Positions 1,131 through 61,639 of a stretch of 64,000 bases of DNA are shown here, in pieces. Location of the stretch: positions 1 through 64,000 of the IMG/VR virus record IMGVR_UViG_3300042254_000186. One strand, given 5' to 3'. The stretch's first letter is position 1; the number at the start of each line of letters is the position of its first letter. The translations under genes were made by a program, and so were the position numbers. The notes beneath the pieces were generated by a model, which ran no database searches, had not been told where the DNA came from, and saw only the letters and a program-made list of their open reading frames with translations. Source of the DNA: a virus. Taxonomy: Duplodnaviria; Caudoviricetes.

Positions 1131-2933
1131 TTAGTTTTTTCTAATACCATTAAGTAGACCGTATCTGCCTCTGTCTTCATCTTGAGTAAATTCAATCACC
1201 TTGACTTTCGAATATGATTCAATATCAGCAGGTAAATCTTTAGGGTTTACATTCTCGATAACTATCATTTGATCATTTTCTATACTTTCAATTATATATT
1301 TGAAAAATCCTTGTCTTACATCATCTGTTGACTCGATTCCATCTGGCATAGTTAATCCATGTAACGGAGAATCAATTAAATAAAAATGCGGGTTGTTAAT
1401 TGAAAACTCATTAATATACTTTCTCATAGATAGAATTAAAATAGTATTTAATAGAGCTCTATAGCCTTTACCGTGTGTTTTCTTTGCGTCCCCATTAACT
1501 ATCACATCAAAATCATTCATATCGAAGACAACTGATTCTAGAGGTGTGAAATTGATTTTTCTTAATATGTCATAATAATAATCTGCAATAGAAGAAGCAA
1601 AGTCATCAGGAAATAAGTCTTTCGGTTTATACTCGATATGTTTGTCAATAGTGGAATCTAAATTTGATAAGTCACTTTCAAAACCTGATAGCATTAGATT
1701 AGTTGATTCTAGTTCGTGAATAGCTTTTATGTATTCATTGTACTTGCTAATTTTTTCAGCTATAGATTGCCTATGTGGTTTGAGTTGATTATTCATATCA
1801 TGATCAATATCTGACTTTTGTCTTTTTAGACCTTCCAACGTTTGCAGAAGAGCATCTTTTTCATTTGAAATATCATCAATTGTGGTCGATAGGGCAATAC
1901 TGCTAGCCAATATTTTTCTTGCTTCAGCTCTTGAAGCTTCTAGATAGGAGGATTCTTGATTTTTTTCAAGACTACCATTACAAAACGGGCAGTTAATTGG
2001 CGATTTATGATTATGAATAACATCTTCACCTTGTATAATGAATCCAAGCCTATTTATATCTGACACATATTGTGATTCTAATATCTTGTATCTGTCTAAT
2101 TGCATATTAACTCGTCTGATCGAGTTTTCAGTTTCTATAATTTGCCTTCCAATAGTTTTTATATTTGTAATCGATTCGTCAATGATCTTGTTAGTCTCAT
2201 CTAGTTCACTCTGCAAATTACTAATCATTTTCTCTAGTGATTCGCTATCTTTTTCAATTCCATTAATATATTTGCTTAAGGTCTCTCTTCGTCCAATGAG
2301 CTTTTCCTTGTTACTTATAATATATTTTTGAACAGCTGCTTTTTTAGCAGCTTTTGTTTTTTTATTTTCATCTGCATCAAATTCAGAAAAATCTTGATCG
2401 TATAAGATGTAAAGTAAACCTGATAAGAAAGCTGTTCTAGCAGTATAGTTATCAGGTAGTAATATTGATTTTTCTAACTCAGTGTCATTTTCATTTACGG
2501 TTAGTAATGATTTCAGTGTTCTCAATGAAAATCTTTGAGTTTGGCCATCAGTATTCTTAGGAACTTTTAATCCTATTTTAATATCAAGCAACTTTGAAAA
2601 GAAATCTCTAATATTATCTTTTTCACCTGAGATTTTGTAGTCAGTTGTTTTATTACCTTCAAGGACGCTGATGGTATTTGAACCAATCACTCTAGTTAGG
2701 GTTATTGATGATAAATTTTTAATTAACTCCATTCTAATCGTATCGTAGCCTATAGATTTATCAAAAGGTGCACTATCATTACTTGCACCTAACATGTAGT
2801 AAATTGATTTATAAATATATGATTTACCAGTGTCTGAGGGACCGATGATAATTGTTAGATTCTCTCCGAAATTAATCTCTGATACACCTTTTTCACCAGT
2901 GTACATAAGTTTGCTAATATATAATCTTCCCAT
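1131..2933 (-). CDS. lmuB: SMC/Rad50-like ABC ATPase of a Lamassu / ABC-three-component system (LmuB-like)
   Basis: Walker A GPSDTGKS, long coiled coil with central CPFC zinc hook, GKG signature variant, Walker B LIDSP; third gene of a three-gene operon. Confidence 0.8.
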   Translation of the reverse strand: MGRLYISKLMYTGEKGVSEINFGENLTIIIGPSDTGKSYIYKSIYYMLGASNDSAPFDKSIGYDTIRMELIKNLSSITLTRVIGSNTISVLEGNKTTDYKISGEKDNIRDFFSKLLDIKIGLKVPKNTDGQTQRFSLRTLKSLLTVNENDTELEKSILLPDNYTARTAFLSGLLYILYDQDFSEFDADENKKTKAAKKAAVQKYIISNKEKLIGRRETLSKYINGIEKDSESLEKMISNLQSELDETNKIIDESITNIKTIGRQIIETENSIRRVNMQLDRYKILESQYVSDINRLGFIIQGEDVIHNHKSPINCPFCNGSLEKNQESSYLEASRAEARKILASSIALSTTIDDISNEKDALLQTLEGLKRQKSDIDHDMNNQLKPHRQSIAEKISKYNEYIKAIHELESTNLMLSGFESDLSNLDSTIDKHIEYKPKDLFPDDFASSIADYYYDILRKINFTPLESVVFDMNDFDVIVNGDAKKTHGKGYRALLNTILILSMRKYINEFSINNPHFYLIDSPLHGLTMPDGIESTDDVRQGFFKYIIESIENDQMIVIENVNPKDLPADIESYSKVKVIEFTQDEDRGRYGLLNGIRKN

Positions 2934-2939
2934 GTCATT

Positions 2940-3377
2940 TTACCCCTTTCTTACAGCTTTTTTAGTAGCAAGCGTAACAATTTGTTTTTCATTCATATTT
3001 GAAGTGATATCATTAACTATTTTCACACATTGACTATATTGGTTAAAGTAATCGGTATCCATTTTAGAGCAAATGATTCTACCTTCTTCACTAATCTTGT
3101 ATGTGAATCCATAAGCATTTTGAATAGGGATCACCAAACCTTCAAGAACTAGTGATTTTAATGCATCATTGATTAATTTTCTTCTTGAAGTTATTTCACT
3201 AAAAGTATAGGTATTATCTCCATGCAAATTGAAATCAATCATATCATACGCTTTTCCATATGTTGCAAATAAATCAATAGATGTTACTTCATCTAAAGAG
3301 CAGTTTTTATTAATGACATTCAATAAAACAAGAACTCGAAACGAAATCTCATGCTTTGAATTAAATATTTTTATCAT
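2940..3377 (-). CDS. lmuC: ABC-3C middle component (LmuC-like)
   Basis: FNSxxEISxR...IDLFxxYG...NLHGD...SEIxSRR motifs typical of ABC-3C middle components; start overlaps the upstream gene. Confidence 0.7.
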   Translation of the reverse strand: MIKIFNSKHEISFRVLVLLNVINKNCSLDEVTSIDLFATYGKAYDMIDFNLHGDNTYTFSEITSRRKLINDALKSLVLEGLVIPIQNAYGFTYKISEEGRIICSKMDTDYFNQYSQCVKIVNDITSNMNEKQIVTLATKKAVRKG

Positions 3378-4317
3378 AATCAACCACCCATTCAATTCGT
3401 CCATCATTGACTAACATGTGAATTATACCTTGTTTTTCTGAATTGCCGATTAAACCGACGTTTTGTCTAGCTAAATACGACCGACCATATGTAATCGTCA
3501 CTGCATGATTCATTGTCCTATTAACTCTCTCGAAAGCATTATTATATGCTGCAATCATCACAGAGAATATGCCATCAAAAGTTTCATCTTTCATAATATT
3601 GAACTCTTCTTCACCATCTTCATATATGTCTCTTATTTGGTGTAACACACTATCGGCACTAAAGTATGTCTTTCTTTGAAACTTAAAATGCTCTTCATAT
3701 TGAGGTTCCAAAGATTTTAAGTCGTCAACGGTCAATGGGCCTAAGCCTGCAGCTTGTGAGTACACTCTCATTAATGCATCAACATACGGCATTTCTTTTT
3801 CTAAGATATTTTCTGTAGGTACGAGTTTTGGATATAGCTTTATCGTTTTCCCACCAATCCTAACTTTGTTATCGCTAATGAATTCAGAATCTCTAATGCT
3901 AGTAGAAGGACTGACATTAACAATGTAATACATAATATCATCCAACGTATCAGTAAGTCCTTGTTCAAAGTCAGTGGGATTAATTTTGATATTAAAAATC
4001 TCGAACTCAGAAATAATATGGTCTATTGCTTCTACTGAAAGATTACTAGAAAAACTTTCAAAGGTTGATGAGTCCAAATTGCCACGTATAAAAGAAGCGC
4101 AATTCTGAGGAAGTGCTTCCGTTCCATTAAAAACTTTTCTTGAAAAATCTGAAGAAAGGTCATCTATAGGGTTTTTATCATCATCATTTATTGAAATGAA
4201 TGCATTAAGATATGTCTTAAGTTTATCTTCTTTTGTTACCCTGCTAGAAGCGGATGAACACATTACTTCATTCCAAAGATACTGATCAATGATTGAGAGA
4301 AATTGATTTAGTTTCAT
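3361..4317 (-). CDS. ABC-3C first component (LmuA-like C-terminal domain) with non-nuclease, possibly HTH-like N-terminus
   Basis: C-terminal ExxYVDALxRVY...QRxxYFxA...KQGxxHMLVNxGxIEW resembles ABC-3C CTDs; first gene of the operon. Confidence 0.65.
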   Translation of the reverse strand: MKLNQFLSIIDQYLWNEVMCSSASSRVTKEDKLKTYLNAFISINDDDKNPIDDLSSDFSRKVFNGTEALPQNCASFIRGNLDSSTFESFSSNLSVEAIDHIISEFEIFNIKINPTDFEQGLTDTLDDIMYYIVNVSPSTSIRDSEFISDNKVRIGGKTIKLYPKLVPTENILEKEMPYVDALMRVYSQAAGLGPLTVDDLKSLEPQYEEHFKFQRKTYFSADSVLHQIRDIYEDGEEEFNIMKDETFDGIFSVMIAAYNNAFERVNRTMNHAVTITYGRSYLARQNVGLIGNSEKQGIIHMLVNDGRIEWVVDYDKNI

Positions 4318-4502: not shown

Positions 4503-4721
4503 TGATAACAGGCTTTATATTTCGTTAGTGTCATGAACTAACTCCCAGAAATATAAAGCTTAAAACTTAATATAATGCAGTATGCGTTGGGACGTTGTCT
4601 GCAAATTGAAATGGAGTTATTCAGTTAACCCTTCTTTTTGCGACCCCTTTGAACTGCCTACATGACTGAGAAAGAATATCTCCATTTTTAGAAAACAAAT
4701 CTAAACTGGAGGTATTTTTTT
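4503..4721 (+). ncRNA. Structured 5' leader / putative RNA switch upstream of the sigma-like gene
   Basis: Three hairpins, the last sequestering GGAGG; alternative pairing 4608-4622 with 4674-4688; conserved with compensatory changes at 60524-60723. Confidence 0.65.
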
Positions 4722-5306
4722 ATGAGATTGTCTAAAGCAGAAAAGAATCAAAATCCTAAATTATATGGATATGGAACCCTCGAACAGCTTCAAAGCGATC
4801 CAGAAAACACGCAAACACACTGGATTCTTTATAAGGATGCGGATGGGGATTACAGGTTCATTCCTTGTGACGAGGCTTATTATCATGCGTATAGAAATGA
4901 AGAACGTAATGAAAGACGTTTGCGTGACTTGGAATCAAGGTGTTTAATTCCATCTGAAAAATACGGGTTAGTGAAATGTCGAGCTGATTGTAGTCTGTGT
5001 CCAAAAGTTAGAGACGGACTTCCTATCTCTATTGATTACATGCGCGAGCATTATGGTTTTGATTTCAAAGATAAGTCTTATGAAGTAAAGGAAGAAGAAT
5101 TATATGAACAAGAACAAAAGGATTTTATTTGGAATGTTGTGAGTGAACTTGATCCTGTAGATCAAAAGATACTCAAACTCTTTAATGCGGGTAAAAAGGA
5201 TGCTGAAATCGCTGAAGTATTAAGTAAATCACGAAGCAGAATTCAGGAACGCAGAGTTCAACTGATTGAACTTTTAAAAGAAAAATTAAAAAAGTTTAAC
5301 GAATAA
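4722..5306 (+). CDS. Phage sigma-70 region 4-like transcription activator (sigma-like 1)
   Basis: C-terminal LDPVDQKILKL...DAEIAEVLSKSRSRIQERR HTH; CxxxCxxC motif; heads the early operon. Confidence 0.75.
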   Translation: MRLSKAEKNQNPKLYGYGTLEQLQSDPENTQTHWILYKDADGDYRFIPCDEAYYHAYRNEERNERRLRDLESRCLIPSEKYGLVKCRADCSLCPKVRDGLPISIDYMREHYGFDFKDKSYEVKEEELYEQEQKDFIWNVVSELDPVDQKILKLFNAGKKDAEIAEVLSKSRSRIQERRVQLIELLKEKLKKFNE

Positions 5307-5308
5307 CC

Positions 5309-5347
5309 GGCAAATGATAGGTTACTTTGCCATTTAACTATTGAAGG
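5309..5347 (+). promoter_or_regulatory. Putative sigma-like-1 promoter GGCAAAT-N13-GCCATTTAACT
   Basis: Same bipartite motif and spacing at 35237-35275. Confidence 0.6.
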
Positions 5348-5385
5348 GGAAAAATACCTTTTCAAAAATTAAAGGAGGTTTAGAA

Positions 5386-5562
5386 ATGCAGAAAGAAAAA
5401 AAGCCCAATAAGCCCTATCTGACGGATAAGGATTTAGTTGAAACGCTGCTATTAATCAGTGAGACATCTAAAACATTGGCACTTGAAGTAATGTTGCTTC
5501 CGGATGAAGCAGAAGGTAATGGAGGTGAGGATGATGTCAAGAAGTCCGACGACCCACAGTAG
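5386..5562 (+). CDS. Small hypothetical phage protein
   Basis: AAGGAGG RBS before ATG 5386; overlaps the next gene start. Confidence 0.6.
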   Translation: MQKEKKPNKPYLTDKDLVETLLLISETSKTLALEVMLLPDEAEGNGGEDDVKKSDDPQ

Positions 5563-11971: not shown

Positions 11972-12385
11972 ATGAAAATATTTCTACTACTAGATCCACC
12001 TACAATTACTGCTCAACAAAATAAAGTAACACTGGTGAACAACAAACCAGTTTTCTATAAACCTGAAAAATTAAAGAAAGCAAGACGAACAATTATCAAA
12101 CATCTCAAACCATTCAAACCGAAGGAACCAATGCAAGGTCCAATCAGGCTTGATGTGATTTGGAGATTTCCTAGAGGTAAGAGACATAAACATCGGGAGT
12201 GGAGAGTAACAAGACCAGATACTGATAATTTGGAAAAGATGCTGAAAGATTGCATGACGGAAGTTGGATTCTGGAATGATGATGCACAAGTGGTAGTTGA
12301 GCATGTGGAGAAGTTATGGTCCGATGATCCAACTGGGATATCAATCGAAATTAATGTGTTAAGTAAACTGAAGGAGGAGCTATGA
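11972..12385 (+). CDS. rusA: RusA-family Holliday junction resolvase
   Basis: RPDTDNLEKMLKD...FWNDDAQV catalytic motif. Confidence 0.9.
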   Translation: MKIFLLLDPPTITAQQNKVTLVNNKPVFYKPEKLKKARRTIIKHLKPFKPKEPMQGPIRLDVIWRFPRGKRHKHREWRVTRPDTDNLEKMLKDCMTEVGFWNDDAQVVVEHVEKLWSDDPTGISIEINVLSKLKEEL

Positions 12386-12828
12386 AAGATGTGAATGAAT
12401 ACCTAAGCCGATATCACAATACAAAAGTGAAGATTCAAAAACTACAAGCGTTAGTGGATGAATATATTCGTTTGGCTAATGAAGTACCAGGAATTCAATT
12501 TGATGCAATTCGAGTTGATGGTGGTAAAAATCTAAAAGCTCCATTTGAGAAGTGGATACTAAAAGCGCTGGACTATGAATTAGAAATAAAAGATATGGAA
12601 AAGAATCTGCCAATCATAAAAGCTGACATCCTAAAAACGATAGAAAAACTCAAGGATTTTGAAATGGAACGTGTGTTAATTTTGCGATATATTGATTGGC
12701 TAACGTGGAATCAAATAGCAGCAAGGATGTATGTATCTATTTCGACACTAAAAAGGTTGCATAAGATAGCGATAGATTGTATTTCAACAAATACTAAAGA
12801 AACACAAGAATTTAAGTGTGAAACGTGA
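12382..12828 (+). CDS. DUF1492/RinA/ArpU-like late transcription activator
   Basis: LILRYIDWLTWNQIAARMYVSISTLKRLH C-terminal HTH; last gene of the replication module. Confidence 0.8.
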   Translation: MKDVNEYLSRYHNTKVKIQKLQALVDEYIRLANEVPGIQFDAIRVDGGKNLKAPFEKWILKALDYELEIKDMEKNLPIIKADILKTIEKLKDFEMERVLILRYIDWLTWNQIAARMYVSISTLKRLHKIAIDCISTNTKETQEFKCET

Positions 12829-35180: not shown

Positions 35181-35211
35181 GGCCGTACTGATAAAAAGGT
35201 ACGGCTTTTTT
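35181..35211 (+). terminator. Intrinsic terminator
   Basis: GGCCGTAC/GTACGGCT stem plus T-run. Confidence 0.75.
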
Positions 35212-35236
35212 ATTTGCGCTTTTTTACGTATTTATT

Positions 35237-35378
35237 GGCAAATCGTGTCATACCTCGCCATTTAACTGATGAAGGAGGTAATTGATATGAAAATGAACAA
35301 TAAAAATAATACAATTTGGATTTTTTCTACAAATAACCCGAACTTTTACACGAATTCTGCGGACTATGATTTAGGAGG
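35237..35378 (+). promoter_or_regulatory. Tandem putative promoters for sigma-like 1 and sigma-like 2 upstream of the recombinase operon
   Basis: 35237-35275 matches 5309-5347; 35335-35378 matches 61337-61380. Confidence 0.65.
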
Positions 35379-35386
35379 TAGTTCGT

Positions 35387-35653
35387 ATGAATAATGACAC
35401 ATTAATTAAAGAGTTAAGAGACAAAGGATATGGTTACAAAAAGATTGCTAATGAGCTGGAACTAAAAGTTGATACTGTTCGTTATGCTTGTTTGAGAATG
35501 GAAGAGGAAAGCCTTGTTGGTTATTGCAAACACTGTGGTCTTGAGATGAAGTCAGTAAAAGGGAAAAAGAAAAAGATATTCTGTTCGGATAGATGCAGGT
35601 GGCAATGGTGGAATGTGCAAAGAAAAGGATCAAGTCACAATGAATCGATCTAA
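35387..35653 (+). CDS. HTH + zinc-finger protein (recombinase-operon accessory, possible RDF)
   Basis: GYGYKKIANEL HTH; CKHCG...FCSDRCR..WW. Confidence 0.7.
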   Translation: MNNDTLIKELRDKGYGYKKIANELELKVDTVRYACLRMEEESLVGYCKHCGLEMKSVKGKKKKIFCSDRCRWQWWNVQRKGSSHNESI

Positions 35654-35912
35654 TTTAGAAATGTATTACCTATCCATCGCACCCATTAAATCAATGTTTG
35701 ATGAGGGGATTTTAAGTAAATCTGAATATCTTAAAGCAGAAGCATTTTTAGCAGAAAAGTATTGTATCAATAAAGGTAACATTCATCGTCTTAACAACTT
35801 GACTAAACCCCCTAAAAGAGTGATATATGGTGTAACCAAAGAGGAGGTAAAAGATGAAGGAAAAGAAGATAACCAAAATCGAAGCATTATCCAAATTACC
35901 AAAGAAAACTAG
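35640..35912 (+). CDS. SHOCT-like small protein preceding the recombinases
   Basis: MFDEGILSKSEY...LAEKY. Confidence 0.6.
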   Translation: MNRSNLEMYYLSIAPIKSMFDEGILSKSEYLKAEAFLAEKYCINKGNIHRLNNLTKPPKRVIYGVTKEEVKDEGKEDNQNRSIIQITKEN

Positions 35913-37167
35913 AGTTGCTGCTTATGCTAGGGTATCTAATGGTAAAGATGCAATGCTACATTCCTTATCTGCTCAAATCAATTATTACAAGAAAGTGATT
36001 CAAGATAATAAAGATTGGCAGTTTGTAGGAGTGTATGCAGATGAAGCTCTCACTGGAACCAAAGACTCGAGACAAGAGTTTCAGCAGCTTTTAGAAGATT
36101 CCAAAGCTGGTAAAATTGATATGATTATTACAAAGTCTATATCAAGGTTTGCAAGAAATACAATGACACTTCTTGAGACTGTAAGAGAACTTGATAAACT
36201 AAATGTTGATGTATTTTTTGAAGAACAGAATATTCACTCAATAAGCAGCGAAGGAGAAATGGTACTTACGTTATTGGCATCTGTAGCACAGGAAGAATCA
36301 AGAAGTGTTTCAGAAAATATGAAATGGCGCATTAAGAAGGAATTTCAGCAAGGTGAGATTTGGGGAGGACGATCGCCTCTTGGGTATAACTTAAAGAATA
36401 AGACGTTTCGTGTGATTCCTAAAGAAGCTGAATTGGTGCAGCTCATCTATAAACTATATGTTGATGGTAATGGTGCTGAAGCAATTTGTCAGATATTAGA
36501 TGAAAAAGGTATAAAACCTAAGGAATCTAAAAAGTGGGGTCCATCATCGATTATTAAGATTCTGTCAAATCGAAATTATACAGGTGACTTGCTATTGCAA
36601 AAGACATACTTGAACAATCATTTATCAAAGAAACAGGTTATCAATAAAGGAGAACTTGATCGATATTTGGTTAAAGGAAATCATGAGGCAATCATAAGCA
36701 AAGAATTATTCGATAAAGTACAGAGAATTAAACAAGAGCGAGCCATTAAAAACAAATCAATTCTACCAAAGAAAAAAACGTTTCTTCATGGCTTAATACA
36801 ATGTGGTAATTGTGGTTCAACTTATACACCTAAGAAGATGAGGCAGAAGGACATTTGGATTTGCTCGAAATCAGCAAGTAAAGGTCAAGATGTTTGTGAT
36901 TCTAAACTTGTCCCACATAATATAATCATTGAAGCGTCTAAGCGTGTTTTGGATATGGACCAATATAGTGAGACAATATTTAATTCGAAGGTTACTAAGA
37001 TAATCGTTCAAGCGAATAAACAACTAGATTTTCATATGAGAGACGGAGCGGTTGTCAGCTATCGTTGGCAACATAAATCAAGAAGTAAGAGTTGGACACC
37101 TGAAATGAAGGAACAAGCACGATTGAGAGCACTAGAACAACATCATGGAGGTGGAGAAAATGCCTAA
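35854..37167 (+). CDS. Large serine recombinase 1
   Basis: AAYARVS, KSISRFARN, AQEES, Y.GD..LQKT, CGNCG zinc ribbon. Confidence 0.93.
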   Translation: MKEKKITKIEALSKLPKKTRVAAYARVSNGKDAMLHSLSAQINYYKKVIQDNKDWQFVGVYADEALTGTKDSRQEFQQLLEDSKAGKIDMIITKSISRFARNTMTLLETVRELDKLNVDVFFEEQNIHSISSEGEMVLTLLASVAQEESRSVSENMKWRIKKEFQQGEIWGGRSPLGYNLKNKTFRVIPKEAELVQLIYKLYVDGNGAEAICQILDEKGIKPKESKKWGPSSIIKILSNRNYTGDLLLQKTYLNNHLSKKQVINKGELDRYLVKGNHEAIISKELFDKVQRIKQERAIKNKSILPKKKTFLHGLIQCGNCGSTYTPKKMRQKDIWICSKSASKGQDVCDSKLVPHNIIIEASKRVLDMDQYSETIFNSKVTKIIVQANKQLDFHMRDGAVVSYRWQHKSRSKSWTPEMKEQARLRALEQHHGGGENA

Positions 37168-38740
37168 GGTCACAGTAATACCATCAACAATTAATCCCAT
37201 TACCCAAATGCCACTAAATGCGAATCAAGTTAAGAAAGTAGCAGCATATGCAAGGGTTTCAACAAATAGCGATGAACAGTACACAAGCTATGAGGCACAA
37301 GTGAATTTCTACAAAAAATACATCCAAGAAAAACCTGACTGGGAATATACCGAAGTATACGCTGATGAAGGGCTTTCAGGAACAACAACTAAGAAACGAG
37401 CTGAGTTTAATCGAATGATTAAGGATGCATTAACTGGTAAGATCAATCTTATCATTACAAAGTCAATATCAAGGTTTGCGAGAAACACACTAGACACGAT
37501 CTCTTATGTTAGAAAGTTAAAAGATCATGGTGTTGAAGTATTCTTTGAAAAAGAGAACTTGTGGACACTTGATCCAAAAAGTGAACTCATTTTAACCATT
37601 ATGGCATCTATCGCACAAGAAGAATCACGCTCCATTAGCCAAAACGTGACGTGGGGTAAGAGGGTCGGTTTCCAGCAAGGTAAAGTTTCATTTGCCTACA
37701 AATCTTTTCTAGGCTATAAGAAAGAAGATGATAAGATTGTCATTGATGAAGATCAAGCAGTCATTGTTAGAATGATTTATCGTATGTTTTTAATTGAAGG
37801 TAAGACTGCAACTGGCATAGCAAACTATTTAAAGTCACAACATATCAAAACGCCAAGAGGCAAAGCGAATTGGACTAAGAATAACGTGAATTCAATTCTT
37901 ACCAATGAGAAGTATAAAGGTGATGCACTTCTTCAAAAGACCTATACCGAAAACTATCTTGATCATAAAATGGTTAAGAATAACGGACAAATTCCTCAGT
38001 ACTATGTAGAAAATAGTCATCCAGCGATTATTGACAGAGATATGTGGGAACAGGTTCAAATTGAACTTAAACGAAGAGAACGAATTGGTGCTAAATACTC
38101 ATCGTCTGATATATTTGCATCGAAACTGATATGTGAGGACTGTGGAGGATTCTATGGCAAAAAGAAATGGCATTCCAATAGCAAGTATTCTAGATTTGTG
38201 TATCAATGTAACAATAAGTTTCATAAGCATAAAGACAAATGCCAAACGCCTAATTTAGCAGAGGAGGACATTAAACTTAAATTCATTAAAGCTTATAATC
38301 TTTCAATGGAAGATAAAGTAAGAATCATAGAAGATACATACAAAGTCATAGAACTGCTGACCGATACAGAAAAACTCGATGATGTTATTTCTGAACTTGA
38401 GGACGAGATCATGGTAACTTCAGAAATAGTGAGTAGACTTGTCAATGAAAATTCAAAAACAGACATAGCTTTAGAAGATTACAATAAAAAGTATGAAGAG
38501 TTATCCAATCGATATGACAAGCTTAAAAACAAACAAACAGACTTGTTAAACGAAAGAAATGAAAAGCAAGGACAAGCACTTAGAATGAAAGCTTTTATTG
38601 CAAGCCTATCTGAATCTGAAGATAAGCTTGATGAATGGAATGAGCGTATTTGGATGTTATTAGTTGATGGAGCAACAGTTCACAGAGATTCGAGCATTAC
38701 ATTCAAGTTATACAATGGCATTGATATAAAAACAAAATAA
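37160..38740 (+). CDS. Large serine recombinase 2
   Basis: AAYARVST, KSISRFARN, NEKYKGD, CEDCG, C-terminal coiled coil. Confidence 0.93.
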   Translation: MPKVTVIPSTINPITQMPLNANQVKKVAAYARVSTNSDEQYTSYEAQVNFYKKYIQEKPDWEYTEVYADEGLSGTTTKKRAEFNRMIKDALTGKINLIITKSISRFARNTLDTISYVRKLKDHGVEVFFEKENLWTLDPKSELILTIMASIAQEESRSISQNVTWGKRVGFQQGKVSFAYKSFLGYKKEDDKIVIDEDQAVIVRMIYRMFLIEGKTATGIANYLKSQHIKTPRGKANWTKNNVNSILTNEKYKGDALLQKTYTENYLDHKMVKNNGQIPQYYVENSHPAIIDRDMWEQVQIELKRRERIGAKYSSSDIFASKLICEDCGGFYGKKKWHSNSKYSRFVYQCNNKFHKHKDKCQTPNLAEEDIKLKFIKAYNLSMEDKVRIIEDTYKVIELLTDTEKLDDVISELEDEIMVTSEIVSRLVNENSKTDIALEDYNKKYEELSNRYDKLKNKQTDLLNERNEKQGQALRMKAFIASLSESEDKLDEWNERIWMLLVDGATVHRDSSITFKLYNGIDIKTK

Positions 38741-51982: not shown

Positions 51983-52280
51983 AACCTCTAAACTAAGCCA
52001 TAATTTAGGGGTGCAATTTTTTCGGGTGGGGGTGCAAAAATTTTGACTAGGGGTGTAAAATTGTAGCAAAATAGGTCATACAACCCATATAAGAAGCATA
52101 GGTTTGATACAATTGTATCAGGCCTTTTTTTACGCTATATAGGGCCGTTTCACGATTTGCCTCAATTTATCAAGCCTGAAAAGAGTATCGCTTTTACTAG
52201 ATTTTGGACATTTCAATAGAATTTCTACACGATTATATTTCAAAATACACGATTTAAAATGGATTTACACGATTTCAGTA
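51983..52280. repeat. Element junction: phased GGGGTG repeats, palindrome, phased TACACGATT repeats
   Basis: GGGGTG at 52008/52029/52050; TGATACAATTGTATCA at 52105-52120; TACACGATT at 52226/52246/52266. Confidence 0.8.
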
Positions 52281-57150: not shown

Positions 57151-58953
57151 CTAATTTTTTCTAATGCCTTTTAGTAATCCATATCGGCCTTTGTTCTCAC
57201 TTTTTGTAAATTCTATAATACTAATATTTGGATCGGTGTTAATATCTTTTGAAAGATCACCAGGAACAATGTTTTCCATAATAATAATTTGATCATCTCC
57301 ATAATTATTAATAACGTAGTTAAAAAACCCTTTTCTAACGTTTTCATCTTGTTGAACTCCTTCTGGCATCTGTATACCATGCAAAGGAGAATCTAATAAA
57401 TAGAAGTGAGGGTTCTTGATAGCAACTTCATTGATGTATTCACGCATAGAGAGAATCATTATTGAATTGAGTAATGCTCTTACACCTTTTCCATGTGTCT
57501 TTTTTTCATCTCCATTAACAATTATATCGAGTTTAGATAAATCAAATTCCGCTGAATTTGCTGGAGTATATTTACATCTCTTTAGTATTGATAGGTATGT
57601 CTTATTTATAGTAGAGATAAAATCATCTGCAAATAACTCTTTTGGTTTATATGCACGTTTTTCACTTACCGTAGAGTCAAGATGGGATAAATCATTCTCA
57701 AAGTTATCAAGCAAAGAATTGATTAATTCTAAATCATTCGATGCTTTTACATAGGCTGAGTATTGACTAATTTTTTGAGTAATAGATACTTTTTGCGGTT
57801 TTAATTCGGTGCTTAGCAGATTGTCGATAGATTTCTTTTTCTTTTTCAAATCTTTAAGCTCATCTAAATAACTAGAAACTTCAAAATCTATATCTATTAG
57901 TGTTTGAGATAAAGACATACTGTTATTTAGTATTTTAACAACTTCAGCTCTCGAAGATTCCAAATAAGAAGCTTCTTGTTCCTTTTCTAATTCCCCATTG
58001 CAGAACGGGCAGTTATGTGGTGATTCATGCTTGTGGATTATATCCTCACCTTGAATGATGAAACCTAACCTCTCAATGTCAGCAATATATTGAGATTCGA
58101 GTGCTTTGTATCTGTTTTGAGTTATCTTTCTTGTTCTAATTAATTCTTCTTTCTTGGTTATCTCGGAGCTTACATTTCTCATATCATTTATTGTTGATGA
58201 AATGAGTGAATTTGTCTTGTCAAGCTCGGTTTGGAGATCTTCAATTAAATTCTCAAGATATGTATTATCTCCATTTTTCTCAGACAAGAATTTTTCAAGT
58301 GAGTCTTTTTGCTGCAAAAACTTTTCTTTATTACTAATGATATACTTTTGAACAGCAGCTCTTTTAGCAGCTTTGGTTTTTTTATTTTCTTCTGCATCAA
58401 ACTCTGAATAATCTTGTTCATATAAAATATACAATAAGCATGATAAGAATGAAGTTGTGTTTTGAACAATGTCAGGAGTCAATATAGGTTTTTCTAACTC
58501 AGTATTATCCTCATGTACAAATAGTAGTGGTTTTAGACTTCGAAATGAAAAAGCCTCAGTTTGACCATCTTCATTTTTAGGTACTTGTAGCGATACAGGT
58601 ATATCTAATATCTCAGAAAAGACTTCTCTAATGTTATCTTTTTTTCCACTAACTTTATAAATCTTATTCTTTATACCATCATTAACGAGAATTTTATTTT
58701 CACCGATTTTTCTAGTTAATGTAATATGCGAATTGTCCTTCCTTACTTCCATAGAAATAGTATCATATCCAATTGAAGTATCAAAAGGTGCGTTCTTATT
58801 GCTAGAGCCTAAAAGATAATAAATTGACTTAAACACATATGTTTTACCGGTATCAGAAGGGCCAAAAATCAACGTTAGGTTTTCACCAAATGTGATTTCT
58901 GAGATTCCTTTAGTTCCAGTAAAAGTTAGTTTATTTATGTGAAATTTTCCCAT
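57151..58953 (-). CDS. lmuB: LmuB-like SMC ATPase, copy 2
   Basis: GPSDTGKT, CPFC, HGKG, LLDSP. Confidence 0.8.
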   Translation of the reverse strand: MGKFHINKLTFTGTKGISEITFGENLTLIFGPSDTGKTYVFKSIYYLLGSSNKNAPFDTSIGYDTISMEVRKDNSHITLTRKIGENKILVNDGIKNKIYKVSGKKDNIREVFSEILDIPVSLQVPKNEDGQTEAFSFRSLKPLLFVHEDNTELEKPILTPDIVQNTTSFLSCLLYILYEQDYSEFDAEENKKTKAAKRAAVQKYIISNKEKFLQQKDSLEKFLSEKNGDNTYLENLIEDLQTELDKTNSLISSTINDMRNVSSEITKKEELIRTRKITQNRYKALESQYIADIERLGFIIQGEDIIHKHESPHNCPFCNGELEKEQEASYLESSRAEVVKILNNSMSLSQTLIDIDFEVSSYLDELKDLKKKKKSIDNLLSTELKPQKVSITQKISQYSAYVKASNDLELINSLLDNFENDLSHLDSTVSEKRAYKPKELFADDFISTINKTYLSILKRCKYTPANSAEFDLSKLDIIVNGDEKKTHGKGVRALLNSIMILSMREYINEVAIKNPHFYLLDSPLHGIQMPEGVQQDENVRKGFFNYVINNYGDDQIIIMENIVPGDLSKDINTDPNISIIEFTKSENKGRYGLLKGIRKN

Positions 58954-58958
58954 ATAAG

Positions 58959-59396
58959 TTATTCCCTCCTAACAGATTCTTTTGTAGCATAATTGATTAA
59001 TTTTTCATCGGTCCAATTTTGCGTTTTTTGAATAATCAATCTGACACTATCAATATACTTTTTAAAATAATCAGTTTCCATTTTTTCACAAACCTTACGA
59101 CCATCCTCACTGATAATATATGTAAATCCATAAGCGTTTTGAAGTGGCATTAGTAATCCGGATAAAACGAGAGTGTTTATTGATTGGGAAACCTGATATC
59201 TTCGTGATGCAATTTCGCTAAAGCTATATGAACTGTCTCCGTGAAGATTAAATTCCAAAAAACCATAGTTTTTTCCATAACTTGAAAACAAATCAATAGT
59301 TGTAATATGATCAACTGATATTGGAGCTCTCATCACATTTGTTATAACGAGAACTCTTAATGATATTTCAAGTTCAGAATTAAATATCTGTGTCAT
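58959..59396 (-). CDS. lmuC: LmuC-like middle component, copy 2
   Basis: FNSELEISLR, IDLFSSYG, NLHGD, SEIASRR. Confidence 0.7.
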   Translation of the reverse strand: MTQIFNSELEISLRVLVITNVMRAPISVDHITTIDLFSSYGKNYGFLEFNLHGDSSYSFSEIASRRYQVSQSINTLVLSGLLMPLQNAYGFTYIISEDGRKVCEKMETDYFKKYIDSVRLIIQKTQNWTDEKLINYATKESVRRE

Positions 59397-60333
59397 AATC
59401 AACCACCCACTCAATCTTCCCTTCATTAACTAGCATATGAACCATTCCTTGTTTTTCAGGGTTTCCAATAATGCCATTATTGTCTCTAGTTAAAATGTTT
59501 TTGCTAAAGGTAATATCAACAACTTTTTGCATTGTACTATCAACTCTTTCGAGAGCATTCTTATACTCTTTCATGATAGTAATTTCAATACCAGAAAGTA
59601 AATCTGCTTTCGCTTCGTTAAACTCGTATTCTCCATCTGGAAATACATCTCTAATTTGATGAAGAACACTCTCGGCGTTAAAATAATTTTCTCTTTGTAA
59701 TTTAAAATGTTTTTCATATCTTGGATGCATTGATTTTAGATCAGTTAATGATATTGATCCGAATTTTTCTGATTGTGCATAGACACGTAGTAAGGCATCA
59801 ACATACCGTATTTCATTTTTTATTATAGCTTCTGTAGGGACAAGCTTATCTAATAAATTTACTGTCTTACCTCCGATTTTAACTTGGTTGTGACCGATAA
59901 AAACTGCATCACGTATTGAAGCTGAAGGCTTCACGTTTATAACGTAATAGAGTATGGTATCTAAGACCTTAGTAATATCTTTTTCAAAATTATCAAAAGT
60001 TATGGTGAAATTATAAGTCGCAAACTGTGAAATCATTCCATTTCTAGCATCCTCAGAGAGATCTTCTGAAAATATTTCAAATGTATAATAATCCAAATTT
60101 TCTTTTATATAAGAGGCGCAATCTACAGGTAAAGATTCTACTCCATTGAAAACCTTAAGTAAAAACCCATCTTTTCTCTTCTCGATTGGATTAGCTGAAT
60201 CCACTGCGGATACAAATGCATTCAAATAAGTCTTTAATTTGTCTGCTTTTGTAACCCTACCAGATTTAGAACCGCTTAAGACTTTATGACTAAAATATTG
60301 TTCCATTATTGATAAAAAATCATTTAGTTTCAT
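59380..60333 (-). CDS. LmuA-like first component, copy 2
   Basis: Colinear homolog of 3361-4317. Confidence 0.65.
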   Translation of the reverse strand: MKLNDFLSIMEQYFSHKVLSGSKSGRVTKADKLKTYLNAFVSAVDSANPIEKRKDGFLLKVFNGVESLPVDCASYIKENLDYYTFEIFSEDLSEDARNGMISQFATYNFTITFDNFEKDITKVLDTILYYVINVKPSASIRDAVFIGHNQVKIGGKTVNLLDKLVPTEAIIKNEIRYVDALLRVYAQSEKFGSISLTDLKSMHPRYEKHFKLQRENYFNAESVLHQIRDVFPDGEYEFNEAKADLLSGIEITIMKEYKNALERVDSTMQKVVDITFSKNILTRDNNGIIGNPEKQGMVHMLVNEGKIEWVVDYDTDI

Positions 60334-60523: not shown

Positions 60524-60723
60524 TTGATAACGCATGCTTATCCATTACTAGTGTGGATTTCGCAAAAGCATGTAGAAATAATTAAGCAGAACTAACCATT
60601 GCGAGGAAAGTCTGCAAAATAAATGGATATACTCATATACCATTCTTTTTGCTGACGCCTATAAACTGCCTACATACTACGAAAAGAGTATCTCCATTAA
60701 TTCAAAAATGGAGGTATTTTTTT
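60524..60723 (+). ncRNA. Structured leader / RNA switch, copy 2
   Basis: Same architecture as 4503-4721 with compensatory base changes. Confidence 0.65.
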
Positions 60724-61356
60724 ATGAAATTACGTAAAACACCAATCTCGAAAAGAATGACATACACCTATTTTTTTGCTAACGGAGATAAGGTCATCCT
60801 GGAACCAGGAAGATCAACAACGATTTATGCATCCGGTGGTAGAACCATACAAGTTGATGAATCTATCACTGAAATCACAATTACCGAACTTCACAGACAA
60901 GATGATGCTGAAGTAAGAGCAAACCTTAAATATATCAACTGTGAAAGCAACATAGAGCGACAAGCACGCATAGCTAATAAAAAGAAGTGGGCTATGGAAC
61001 ATCCTGAAGAAGTTAATCCATATGACAAACCACCAAGAATCATGAATCTCGATGCATTTAATGATGATGAAAACTCACAAGACGATAAAAGCAGTCTGTT
61101 ATATAAAGCATCTATTTACTCAGAGCAAATCAACTCTGATGATAATTATGAAAAGCTCGAGCTCATCAAAGAGTTTGTTGCTACATTACCAACTACCATG
61201 CAAGAGATGTTTGACCTTATCTATATTCAAGAACTAAAACAATCAGATGTTTGCTCGATTTTAGGTATATCAAAAAGCACGGTATCAGAACGTGTAAAAA
61301 CACTTAACAAAAAAATAATTGAACATTTTTCAAACCAACCCGAACTTTTGAGATAA
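60724..61356 (+). CDS. Phage sigma-70 region 4-like activator (sigma-like 2)
   Basis: LPTTMQEMFDLIY...KQSDVCSILGISKSTVSER; GGAGG RBS before ATG 60724. Confidence 0.75.
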   Translation: MKLRKTPISKRMTYTYFFANGDKVILEPGRSTTIYASGGRTIQVDESITEITITELHRQDDAEVRANLKYINCESNIERQARIANKKKWAMEHPEEVNPYDKPPRIMNLDAFNDDENSQDDKSSLLYKASIYSEQINSDDNYEKLELIKEFVATLPTTMQEMFDLIYIQELKQSDVCSILGISKSTVSERVKTLNKKIIEHFSNQPELLR

Positions 61357-61380
61357 AAATGCGGACTAAGATTTAGAAGG
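61337..61380 (+). promoter_or_regulatory. Putative sigma-like-2 promoter CCGAACTTTT-N10-TGCGGACTA
   Basis: Same motif and spacing at 35335-35378. Confidence 0.6.
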
Positions 61381-61411
61381 CAAAAAAGCACTTCTAGAAA
61401 AGAGGAAAAAT

Positions 61412-61639
61412 ATGCAATCCAAAAAGCATAGAGTTCGCATTAATTTAGCGGACAAAAGGAGTAGGAATACCAACATCATCGAGACTATGGATGAGACACT
61501 TCCAAAAAAACTATTCAATAAGTTATTCGGTAAGAAAAAACGAGTCTTGATTATTGCTCCAAGTGATTCGGTAACAGGCATTGAAATATATGAAGAGGTA
61601 GGTGAAAGAAATGTCAAGAAGCCCAACGGTTCACAGTAG
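61412..61639 (+). CDS. Small hypothetical phage protein
   Basis: AGAGG RBS; LF..LFG...VLII.P.DSV..IEI pattern. Confidence 0.65.
   Translation: MQSKKHRVRINLADKRSRNTNIIETMDETLPKKLFNKLFGKKKRVLIIAPSDSVTGIEIYEEVGERNVKKPNGSQ

Follow-up and report, generated by a model that had tools for sequence, protein, structure and literature searches.

Regulators of one mobile element can act on another, as phages P2 and P4 illustrate: Ogr and Delta reciprocally transactivate late promoters, and the satellite, which has no structural genes, reads the activator of its helper. The two proteins are homologous zinc-finger activators and serve one shared promoter type. A second kind of dual control has been described for SPbeta of Bacillus subtilis, where sprB, the gene of the recombination directionality factor, receives two inputs, namely SOS-induced read-through and a mother-cell sigma-E/sigma-K promoter directly upstream (PMC4191935). 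For KplE1 of E. coli, which uses a tyrosine integrase, promoters of the recombination genes intS and torI are reported to overlap the sites of att-binding proteins (PMC2951348). A literature search found no publication on phage regulation in Acholeplasma-type hosts.

Here we analyse a recombinase operon preceded by two unrelated motifs in tandem. The window, by which we mean the whole 64-kb stretch of DNA under study, is the first part of a 101,677-nt virus record that contains two collinear Acholeplasma-type prophages (element 1, approximately 873-38746; element 2, from approximately 56893 to contig position 97685). The sequencing runs that contain this stretch are DNA metagenomes only, from wastewater and oil fields, and no RNA run is listed among them. 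Throughout their length the two elements are 65-88% identical, save for one non-homologous cassette, which is made up of a small ORF and a sigma-like gene together with the motif that follows this gene. Their gene order is the same: a leftward ABC-3C defence operon at the left end and then, rightward, the sigma-like gene, a DUF2800 nuclease, replication genes, a second sigma-like gene (DUF1492-type, a probable late regulator), packaging and virion genes, and an operon encoding an HTH and zinc-ribbon protein (HTH-Zn), a SHOCT-domain protein and twin recombinases. We read the segment 35237-35378, directly before this last operon, as a bilingual, regulator-specific compound promoter in which two unrelated cassettes would stand in tandem, one for each regulator family, and we place somewhat more than even confidence in this reading. 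Features outside the recombinase operon are as follows.

355-426 and 445-532: two tRNA genes (Rfam) where the contig begins, to the left of the element 1 defence operon
1131-4317 and 57151-60333, minus strand: three-gene ABC-3C operons (AAA_23 ATPase, MC2, CTD6), one in each prophage
4722-5306, plus strand: sigma-1-like early regulator, 194 aa, TIGR02937 score below the cut-off
5386-5562, plus strand: small ORF of the sigma-1 cassette, 58 aa, co-varying with the sigma type
12382-12828: third sigma-like gene, in element 1, 148 aa, Sigma70_r4 and DUF1492
60724-61356, plus strand: sigma-2-like early regulator of prophage 2, 210 aa, PF08281 Sigma70_r4_2 (E 2.2e-6)
61412-61639, plus strand: small ORF of the sigma-2 cassette, 75 aa, phrog_7234 (E 2.3e-14), co-varying with sigma-2
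4730-5533 in element 1 versus 60732-61610 in element 2: the non-homologous cassette

Several observations concern this general layout. The ABC-3C operons are divergent from the sigma-like genes and occupy the slot where a repressor would be expected. The leaders at 4597-4729 and 60610-60731 are 76% identical despite the non-homologous sigma-like genes downstream. The product of the gene at 12382-12828, which a 600-nt gene-free stretch separates from the packaging genes downstream, is probably a late-gene activator. An Rfam search of the window returned the two tRNAs and no other match.

Two motifs in tandem before the recombinase operon

The late/lysis operon of element 1 is closed by an intrinsic terminator, so the recombinase operon that follows is insulated from the late genes. 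The motifs, their copies elsewhere on the contig and the genes that they precede are listed here.

5309-5339, plus strand: early-operon copy of motif 1 (GGCAAAT-N13-GCCATTTAACT), exact match, 3 nt past the sigma-1 stop codon
5341-5365, plus strand: 5' hairpin in which the purine box GAAGGGG, 3' of motif 1, is buried (-8.2 kcal/mol, 9-bp stem)
35181-35215, plus strand: intrinsic terminator closing the late/lysis operon (stem 35181-35206 plus T run)
35237-35267, plus strand: recombinase-operon copy of motif 1 (candidate promoter P-m1), exact match
35271-35278, plus strand: ribosome site GAAGGAGG of the leader ORF, strong as read from the sequence
35287-35394, plus strand: leader ORF of 35 codons bridging both motifs, its stop overlapping the HTH-Zn start (ATGAATAA)
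35335-35378, plus strand: recombinase-operon copy of motif 2 (AACCCGAACTTTT-N10-TGCGGACTAnGATTTAG; candidate promoter P-m2), ending in the HTH-Zn ribosome site
35387-35653, plus strand: HTH-Zn, 88 aa, first gene of the operon, phrog_2308 (E 1.6e-17)
35613-35912, plus strand: SHOCT-domain protein, PF20612 (E 1.1e-7)
35854-37167, plus strand: large serine recombinase 1, 437 aa, with Resolvase, Recombinase and Zn_ribbon_recom domains
37145-38740, plus strand: large serine recombinase 2, 531 aa, with the same three domains
61337-61380, plus strand: early-operon copy of motif 2, overlapping the sigma-2 stop codon
61372-61398, plus strand: 5' hairpin burying the purine box AGAAGG (-10 kcal/mol, z -3.76)
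Contig 94174: motif 1 variant GGCAAAA-N13-GCCATTAACT, before the element 2 recombinase operon
Contig 94271: third copy of motif 2, before the element 2 recombinase operon

Both recombinases combine catalytic, Recombinase and zinc beta-ribbon domains, as large serine recombinases (integrases) do. HTH-Zn precedes serine recombinases in 59 phage records; its best match, in Streptococcus phage phi29961, belongs to a composite element and was set aside as not informative.

The first-pass annotation had described the tandem at 35237 and 35335 with further copies behind sigma-1 and at 61337, and all of these sites, of which the one behind sigma-1 lies at 5309, proved to be exact matches at frequencies above those that chance allows. 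When up to three mismatches are permitted, motif 1 has two matches against 0.09 expected, a number that none of 100 shuffles reached. The first box of motif 2 occurs exactly only at 35335 and 61337, and its second box only at 35358 and 61360. That the boxes are conserved while the spacers differ, another of the original claims, also holds, as the 10-nt spacers of the 35335 and 61337 copies of motif 2 are unrelated (ACACGAATTC and GAGATAAAAA, respectively) and the boxes on either side are exact. The first box at 61337 is part of the final codons of the sigma-2 gene, and the same bases at 35335 belong to a different reading frame. It is thus the DNA and not the protein that has been conserved, which rules out protein-coding homology as the cause.

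The anatomy of the motifs was drawn from 62 unique motif 1 sites and 42 unique motif 2 sites, each of which resolves into two information-rich boxes held at a fixed distance by a low-information spacer: GGCA-N16-GCCAT for motif 1, and GAAC-N15/16-CGGACT for motif 2 (GAAC-N16-CGGACT in the 35335 copy). The geometry of motif 2 is of the ECF type (AAC-N16-CG), and fixed-spacing bipartite sites of this kind are what cognate promoters of ECF-type sigma factors look like as a sequence pattern. Both motifs always lie on the coding strand, 25-60 nt 5' of a start codon and past a terminator or gene end, which is how promoters are placed. A scan for housekeeping promoters revealed no convincing sigma-70-type promoter coinciding with the motifs; motif 2 includes a hexamer, TATGAT/TAAGAT, that is a good -10 element of the housekeeping type but is not accompanied by a -35 element, which would suit an activator-dependent promoter. 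As candidate promoters, P-m1 would have the form ccGGCAAA-N14-GCCATT(T)AAC and P-m2 the form CCGAACTTTT-N9/10-TGCGGACTA, each followed by a purine box.

The purine box does lie a few bases 3' of each motif, and before HTH-Zn or the leader ORF it is a working ribosome site. Past the two early copies it is buried in the hairpins listed above, of which the 5341-5365 stem is kept in relatives and the 61372-61398 hairpin shows compensatory changes in a distant relative (L124). Two other RNA structures were considered and rejected. Motif 1 itself could be read as a hairpin at 5309, where GGCAAA pairs with TTTGCC; the 3' arm varies (TTGCC, TCGCC) and the invariant 5' arm is uncompensated. A gating hairpin between the -10 box of motif 2 (CGGACUA) and UAGUUCG at the HTH-Zn start would be a possible translation gate for long transcripts, and we do not claim it: it is not kept in all modules and its fold has a z of only -1.3.

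The 35-codon ORF that had been noted between the motifs is real. It has a strong ribosome site, and its reading frame is open in all 10 unique variants of the module in which both motifs are linked by the ORF (hereafter tandem-long). Its N-terminal half, which exists in three versions, has diverged to a mean nucleotide identity of 72% across these variants, and its stop overlaps or closely trails the HTH-Zn start in every one of them. An open frame that ends at the HTH-Zn start fits translational coupling of P-m1 transcripts to HTH-Zn. In modules with motif 1 only, the GAAGGAGG box serves HTH-Zn directly. We expect transcripts from P-m1 to start a few bases past GCCATTTAACT (~35268-35275) and to reach HTH-Zn through the leader ORF, and those from P-m2 to start a few bases past CGGACTAT (~35367-35375), just before the HTH-Zn ribosome site.

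The same tandem precedes the recombinase operon of element 2, which lies beyond the window at contig 94174-94322, where the first-pass annotation had suggested looking for it. Its motif 1 carries two changes, one of them a 1-nt deletion, and the resulting form, GCCATTAAC, is a common natural variant. The recombination modules of the two prophages are 83.6% identical and their HTH-Zn proteins 94% identical. Given this second tandem, the device is symmetric and a property of the shared recombination module, not one-sided in prophage 1.

A short word, (T)ACACGAWT, recurs within the spacers. It has only nine occurrences in the 101.7 kb, including one in the motif 2 spacer of each recombinase promoter (TACACGAAT at 35347-35355, and again at contig 94283) and an inverted copy in the motif 1 spacer at 35241-35248 (ACACGATT on the minus strand). 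Three more form a regular array:

52226-52274, plus strand: three TACACGATT repeats (52226, 52246 and 52266) with a 20-bp period, the same word as in the promoter spacers

An unrelated genome, G012 (L146, L148), has the same word in its recombinase promoter spacer and in two 21-bp phased arrays of four and six copies, situated ~6 kb to the left of the sigma gene and ~7 kb to the right of the promoter. By its distribution, the word looks like an operator common to element ends and recombinase promoters.

Motif type and regulator type across related phages

To place the tandem in a wider context, we compared ~100 related loci from Acholeplasmatales and Izemoplasmatales. A prokaryote genome scan with recombinase 2 yielded 54 loci, nearly all of them in Acholeplasmataceae, Izemoplasmatales, Mariniplasma, Liberiplasma and related uncultured lineages, and in exact-pattern scans of IMG/VR motif 2 had 25 loci and motif 1 had 21, about five of the latter being chance matches in unrelated DNA. 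The true IMG/VR matches lie either behind the cognate regulator and ahead of the small ORF and DUF2800, or directly ahead of HTH-Zn; as IMG/VR contigs are fragments, the regulator and recombinase ends are mostly unlinkable there. Across the whole set the motifs occur in few contexts: past the cognate sigma-like gene, before the HTH-Zn/recombinase operon or, in small islands, before a replication-helicase gene. In five whole genomes (1.7-2.2 Mb) they are essentially confined to these phage sites, although the spacer range of the whole-genome pattern searches missed copies with an N9 spacer, so that true sites are under-counted.

Motif type and regulator type co-vary. Motif 1 lies past every sigma-1 homologue that was examined (L027, L029, L096-98, L100, L103, L111, L115), and motif 2 stands at the end of sigma-2 homologues, arranged as at 61337 (L004-6, 8, 14, 15, 17, 20, 23, 99, 101, 120, 121). 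The recombinase modules come in four forms: motif 1 only, motif 2 only, a tandem with the leader ORF, and a tandem with a ~25-nt gap and no ORF. In the five cases in which the regulator and recombinase ends share a contig, ~30 kb apart, the single motif always matches the regulator, with motif 1 only and sigma-1 in G007, G008, G013 and G018 and motif 2 only and sigma-2 in G012. At the level of genomes there are seven pairs of motif 1 with sigma-1, two of motif 2 with sigma-2 and no mismatch. All nine single-motif modules thus agree with the sigma type of their own element or genome, a count to be read with the knowledge that most pairings come from metagenome-assembled genomes, that several are genome-level only and that closely related genomes are not independent. 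This is the co-variation of sigma type and motif that the earlier annotation had proposed as a check. Individual idiosyncrasies are shared as well: the early and recombinase sites alike have a 13-nt spacer and GCCATTAACCATTGA in G018, GCCATTAATC in G013 and GCGGACTT in G047. In G044 (Acutalibacteraceae), which is assembled in small separate contigs, the sigma-2-like gene has diverged and the recombinase motif is not clear-cut.

The comparison of the two prophages in the window points in the same direction. As they differ by a single non-homologous cassette and their HTH-Zn proteins are 94% identical, the regulator cassette is the only plausible specificity determinant of the early-operon motif. 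That the motifs are the cognate sites of the two sigma-like gene families is, on these comparative grounds, well supported.

A separate feature of many recombinase modules is an inverted repeat, CTCAACGATTTG ... CAAATCGTTGGG, which encloses ~70 nt just 5' of motif 1 (L046, L048, L054, L055, L057, L062, L063, L065, L068, L070, L071). Neither prophage of the window has this repeat.

The breadth of the comparison also bears on what the tandem is for. The first-pass annotation had proposed cross-element control in the form of eavesdropping, in which prophage 1 excises upon induction of prophage 2. In a one-way version of this, prophage 1 would have acquired the promoter of prophage 2 to that end. 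A prophage whose own regulator is sigma-1 and which has a perfect motif 2 immediately ahead of HTH-Zn, with a sigma-2 gene 25 kb away on the same contig, is what one would see in such a case. The proposal is nonetheless too specific to prophage 1. Prophage 2 has the same tandem (with the motif 1 variant), and elsewhere the tandem-long module is known from 10 or more sequence variants, among them one in a sigma-2 element and one in an element without any such regulator, a spread that by itself already suggests a tandem older than the association of these two prophages. Moreover, none of 47 related genomes contains both regulator types, which makes co-resident cross-talk as on this contig unusual and co-residence not the usual setting. 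We regard one-way eavesdropping as very unlikely. What survives of the proposal is that the motifs are cognate sites of two regulator families, and the alternative offered alongside it, a multi-sigma input by which the recombination module would tolerate an exchange of regulatory modules, fits the mosaic structure of these phages better.

The sigma-like regulators and the candidate promoters

The two early regulators had originally been called sigma factors. Neither reaches the 42.9-bit cut-off of TIGR02937 (sigma70-ECF), sigma-1 scoring 33.1 bits and sigma-2 scoring 41.0 bits, and a Pfam search with sigma-1 gave no match; in the phage record collection sigma-1 has no relative and sigma-2 a single weak one. 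AlphaFold2 (AF2) models (pLDDT 77.5 and 78.3) show a common layout, in which a small beta domain at the N terminus is followed by a long helix and then by a domain of four helices. This C-terminal domain is clearly of the sigma domain 4 type. In the AF2 model, residues 120-194 of sigma-1 superpose on sigma domain 4 with Z scores of 10-11 and rmsd values of 1.3-2.5 Å; VIA-align places this domain on sigma-H with Z 11.2 and 1.3 Å over 71 residues, and on SigE region 4 with Z 10.4. Residues 136-209 of the sigma-2 model align with SigL (VIA-align; Z 10.7, 1.5 Å, 69 residues) and its domain 4 with SigE region 4 bound to -35 DNA (Z 9.4). Both C-terminal domains are closest to ECF -35-binding domains, and response-regulator-type helix-turn-helix folds score lower (Z 6-7.5).

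Domain 2 was not recognised: for the full-length AF2 models, no structural match covers residues 1-115, which comprise a four-stranded beta domain and the long helix. The label sigma-like is, on the strength of the models, justified for both proteins, and their membership in the sigma factors proper is putative; the original designation is borne out for domain 4. Because domain 2 is not recognisable, the regulators may instead be activators that use a host sigma factor.

The same gap could be taken to mean that the motifs are not promoters read by the sigma-like proteins at all, but operators for another DNA-binding protein, be it the small ORF product, HTH-Zn or a host factor. The small ORF in particular tracks the motif in just the way that the sigma-like gene does. 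Several lines of evidence speak against this reading. The small ORFs of both cassettes have no recognisable DNA-binding domain in family searches (the 58-aa product has no family match whatsoever), and HTH-Zn is nearly identical in two prophages that differ in the motif of the early operon, so that it cannot be what sets the specificity. The sigma-like proteins, for their part, do have a domain 4 of the -35-binding type, and the motifs are positioned relative to start codons and gene ends as promoters are. An operator for some other protein is in our estimation quite improbable.

We therefore return to the compound promoter as the preferred reading, whose working can be outlined as follows. 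Sigma-1-like proteins would read motif 1 and sigma-2-like proteins motif 2, both acting as early regulators that direct RNA polymerase to their sites by way of a sigma domain 4. In every phage of the group, the regulator's own motif directly behind its gene would drive the replication (early) operon, and a second copy 30 kb away would do the same for the HTH-Zn/SHOCT/twin serine-recombinase operon. With copies of one motif at both operons, recombination functions would be made only once the regulator is made. Where both cassettes are present, as in the two prophages here, the recombination module could be fired by the resident regulator or, in trans, by a regulator of the other family that is supplied by a co-resident prophage or a superinfecting phage, and it would still work after a swap of the regulatory cassette. 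The recombinase operon can thus probably be switched on by either kind of phage. Activation in trans is plausible; it would then work reciprocally and in general, and not as an adaptation of prophage 1.

Sigma-less islands, possible trans-activation and known systems

The motifs also occur in elements that have no regulator of either kind. Small sigma-less islands were found in seven genomes (G010, G014, G016, G017, G031, G033 and G039); they encode a Rep-like AAA_25 helicase whose C terminus is a winged helix, DUF6933, HTH-Zn and two serine recombinases, and often adjoin type I restriction genes, defence genes or other large genes. The locus in G010 (L109) spans C1 ~673000-680300 with a core of ~6.5 kb; the other island loci are L139-L144. 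Before the helicase gene stands motif 2 followed by motif 1, motif 1 followed by motif 2, or two motif 1 variants 100 nt apart, and in four of the seven islands a tandem also precedes HTH-Zn. Six of the seven host genomes, including the complete 1.69-Mb G010 chromosome, yielded no sigma-1 or sigma-2 gene. Since the islands lack a sigma-like gene, their motifs can only be served in trans, and the presence of motifs before both operons suggests that activation in trans takes place. A further step would be to regard the islands as satellites that sense either class of helper through its early sigma-like factor and then excise and replicate, with the motifs as a shared language of the phage community in Acholeplasmatales and Izemoplasmatales and with the bilingual promoters of full prophages allowing reciprocal cross-induction. 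We offer this as a tentative possibility, which on present evidence we would not bet on.

A related case is the phage-sized IMG/VR provirus of G005, which has the same sequence as the MO-XQ plasmid CP017949.1 (L106-L108). Its late genes and recombination module are ~89% identical to those of element 1, and its early region has been replaced by a CI-type repressor module, several methyltransferases and, at the left end, a second pair of serine recombinases. It keeps both motifs without either sigma-like gene. This tandem fits trans-activation, and it fits an unused relic equally.

The relic interpretation deserves consideration for the tandems in general, which could be scars of module shuffling between sigma-1 and sigma-2 phages, with only the motif of the resident regulator at work and the other silent. 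It is clear that regulatory cassettes are exchanged between phages that are collinear elsewhere, modules with one motif are known and are sufficient, motif 1 of prophage 2 has two changes, and G005 retains its motifs as just described. A silent relic would hardly be expected to show the conservation that is seen, however: among the 10 unique tandem-long variants the boxes are 94-99% identical, against 72% (minimum 54%) for the DNA between the cassettes, and the leader ORF that links P-m1 to HTH-Zn has stayed open in all of them. Tandems have also arisen independently in three or more layouts, with the two motifs in either order (motif 1-leader ORF-motif 2, motif 1-25 nt-motif 2, motif 2-motif 1, and two motif 1 variants), and the sigma-less islands have both motifs before both operons. 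We consider a scar unlikely.

If the compound promoter is what it appears to be, temperate phages of wall-less Bacillota would time recombination by a dedicated phage regulator and not by the classic repressor/Xis circuit. A recombination module that evolved to accept two unrelated regulators would explain how regulatory and recombination modules are shuffled without loss of function, and would provide a simple route for cross-induction between prophages. It would also offer a candidate means by which a new group of satellite-like islands sense their helpers. For Mollicutes, in which genetic tools are lacking, the two pairs of regulator and promoter would be compact orthogonal expression parts.

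By analogy, the closest documented precedents for the proposed device appear to be the cross-activation between P2 and P4 and the two-input control of sprB in SPbeta. As in P2 and P4, regulators of one mobile element would activate promoters on another; unlike there, two unrelated motifs stand side by side, one per regulator family, and the target is a recombination operon. With the ECF (group 4) sigma factors the regulators share the domain 4 fold, the GAAC-N15/16-CGGACT geometry of motif 2 and a regulator gene that adjoins its own target promoter. They differ from that group in their sub-cut-off scores, the lack of a recognisable domain 2 and a motif 1 without the AAC signature, and the position of the promoter 3' of the regulator gene implies that, unlike ECF genes, they are not auto-activated. 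The TACACGAWT word, which occurs in promoter spacers as well as in phased arrays close to the element ends, is reminiscent of KplE1 (PMC2951348), for which no phage sigma-like regulator is reported. The locus most resembles SPbeta sprB in that an excision function of a large-serine-recombinase prophage has two separate transcriptional inputs (PMC4191935). The second input of sprB comes from a developmental sigma factor of the host, and its two inputs are not arranged as tandem cassettes, whereas here both inputs appear to be phage-encoded and to belong to two families, and the whole recombinase operon, not the directionality factor alone, lies downstream.
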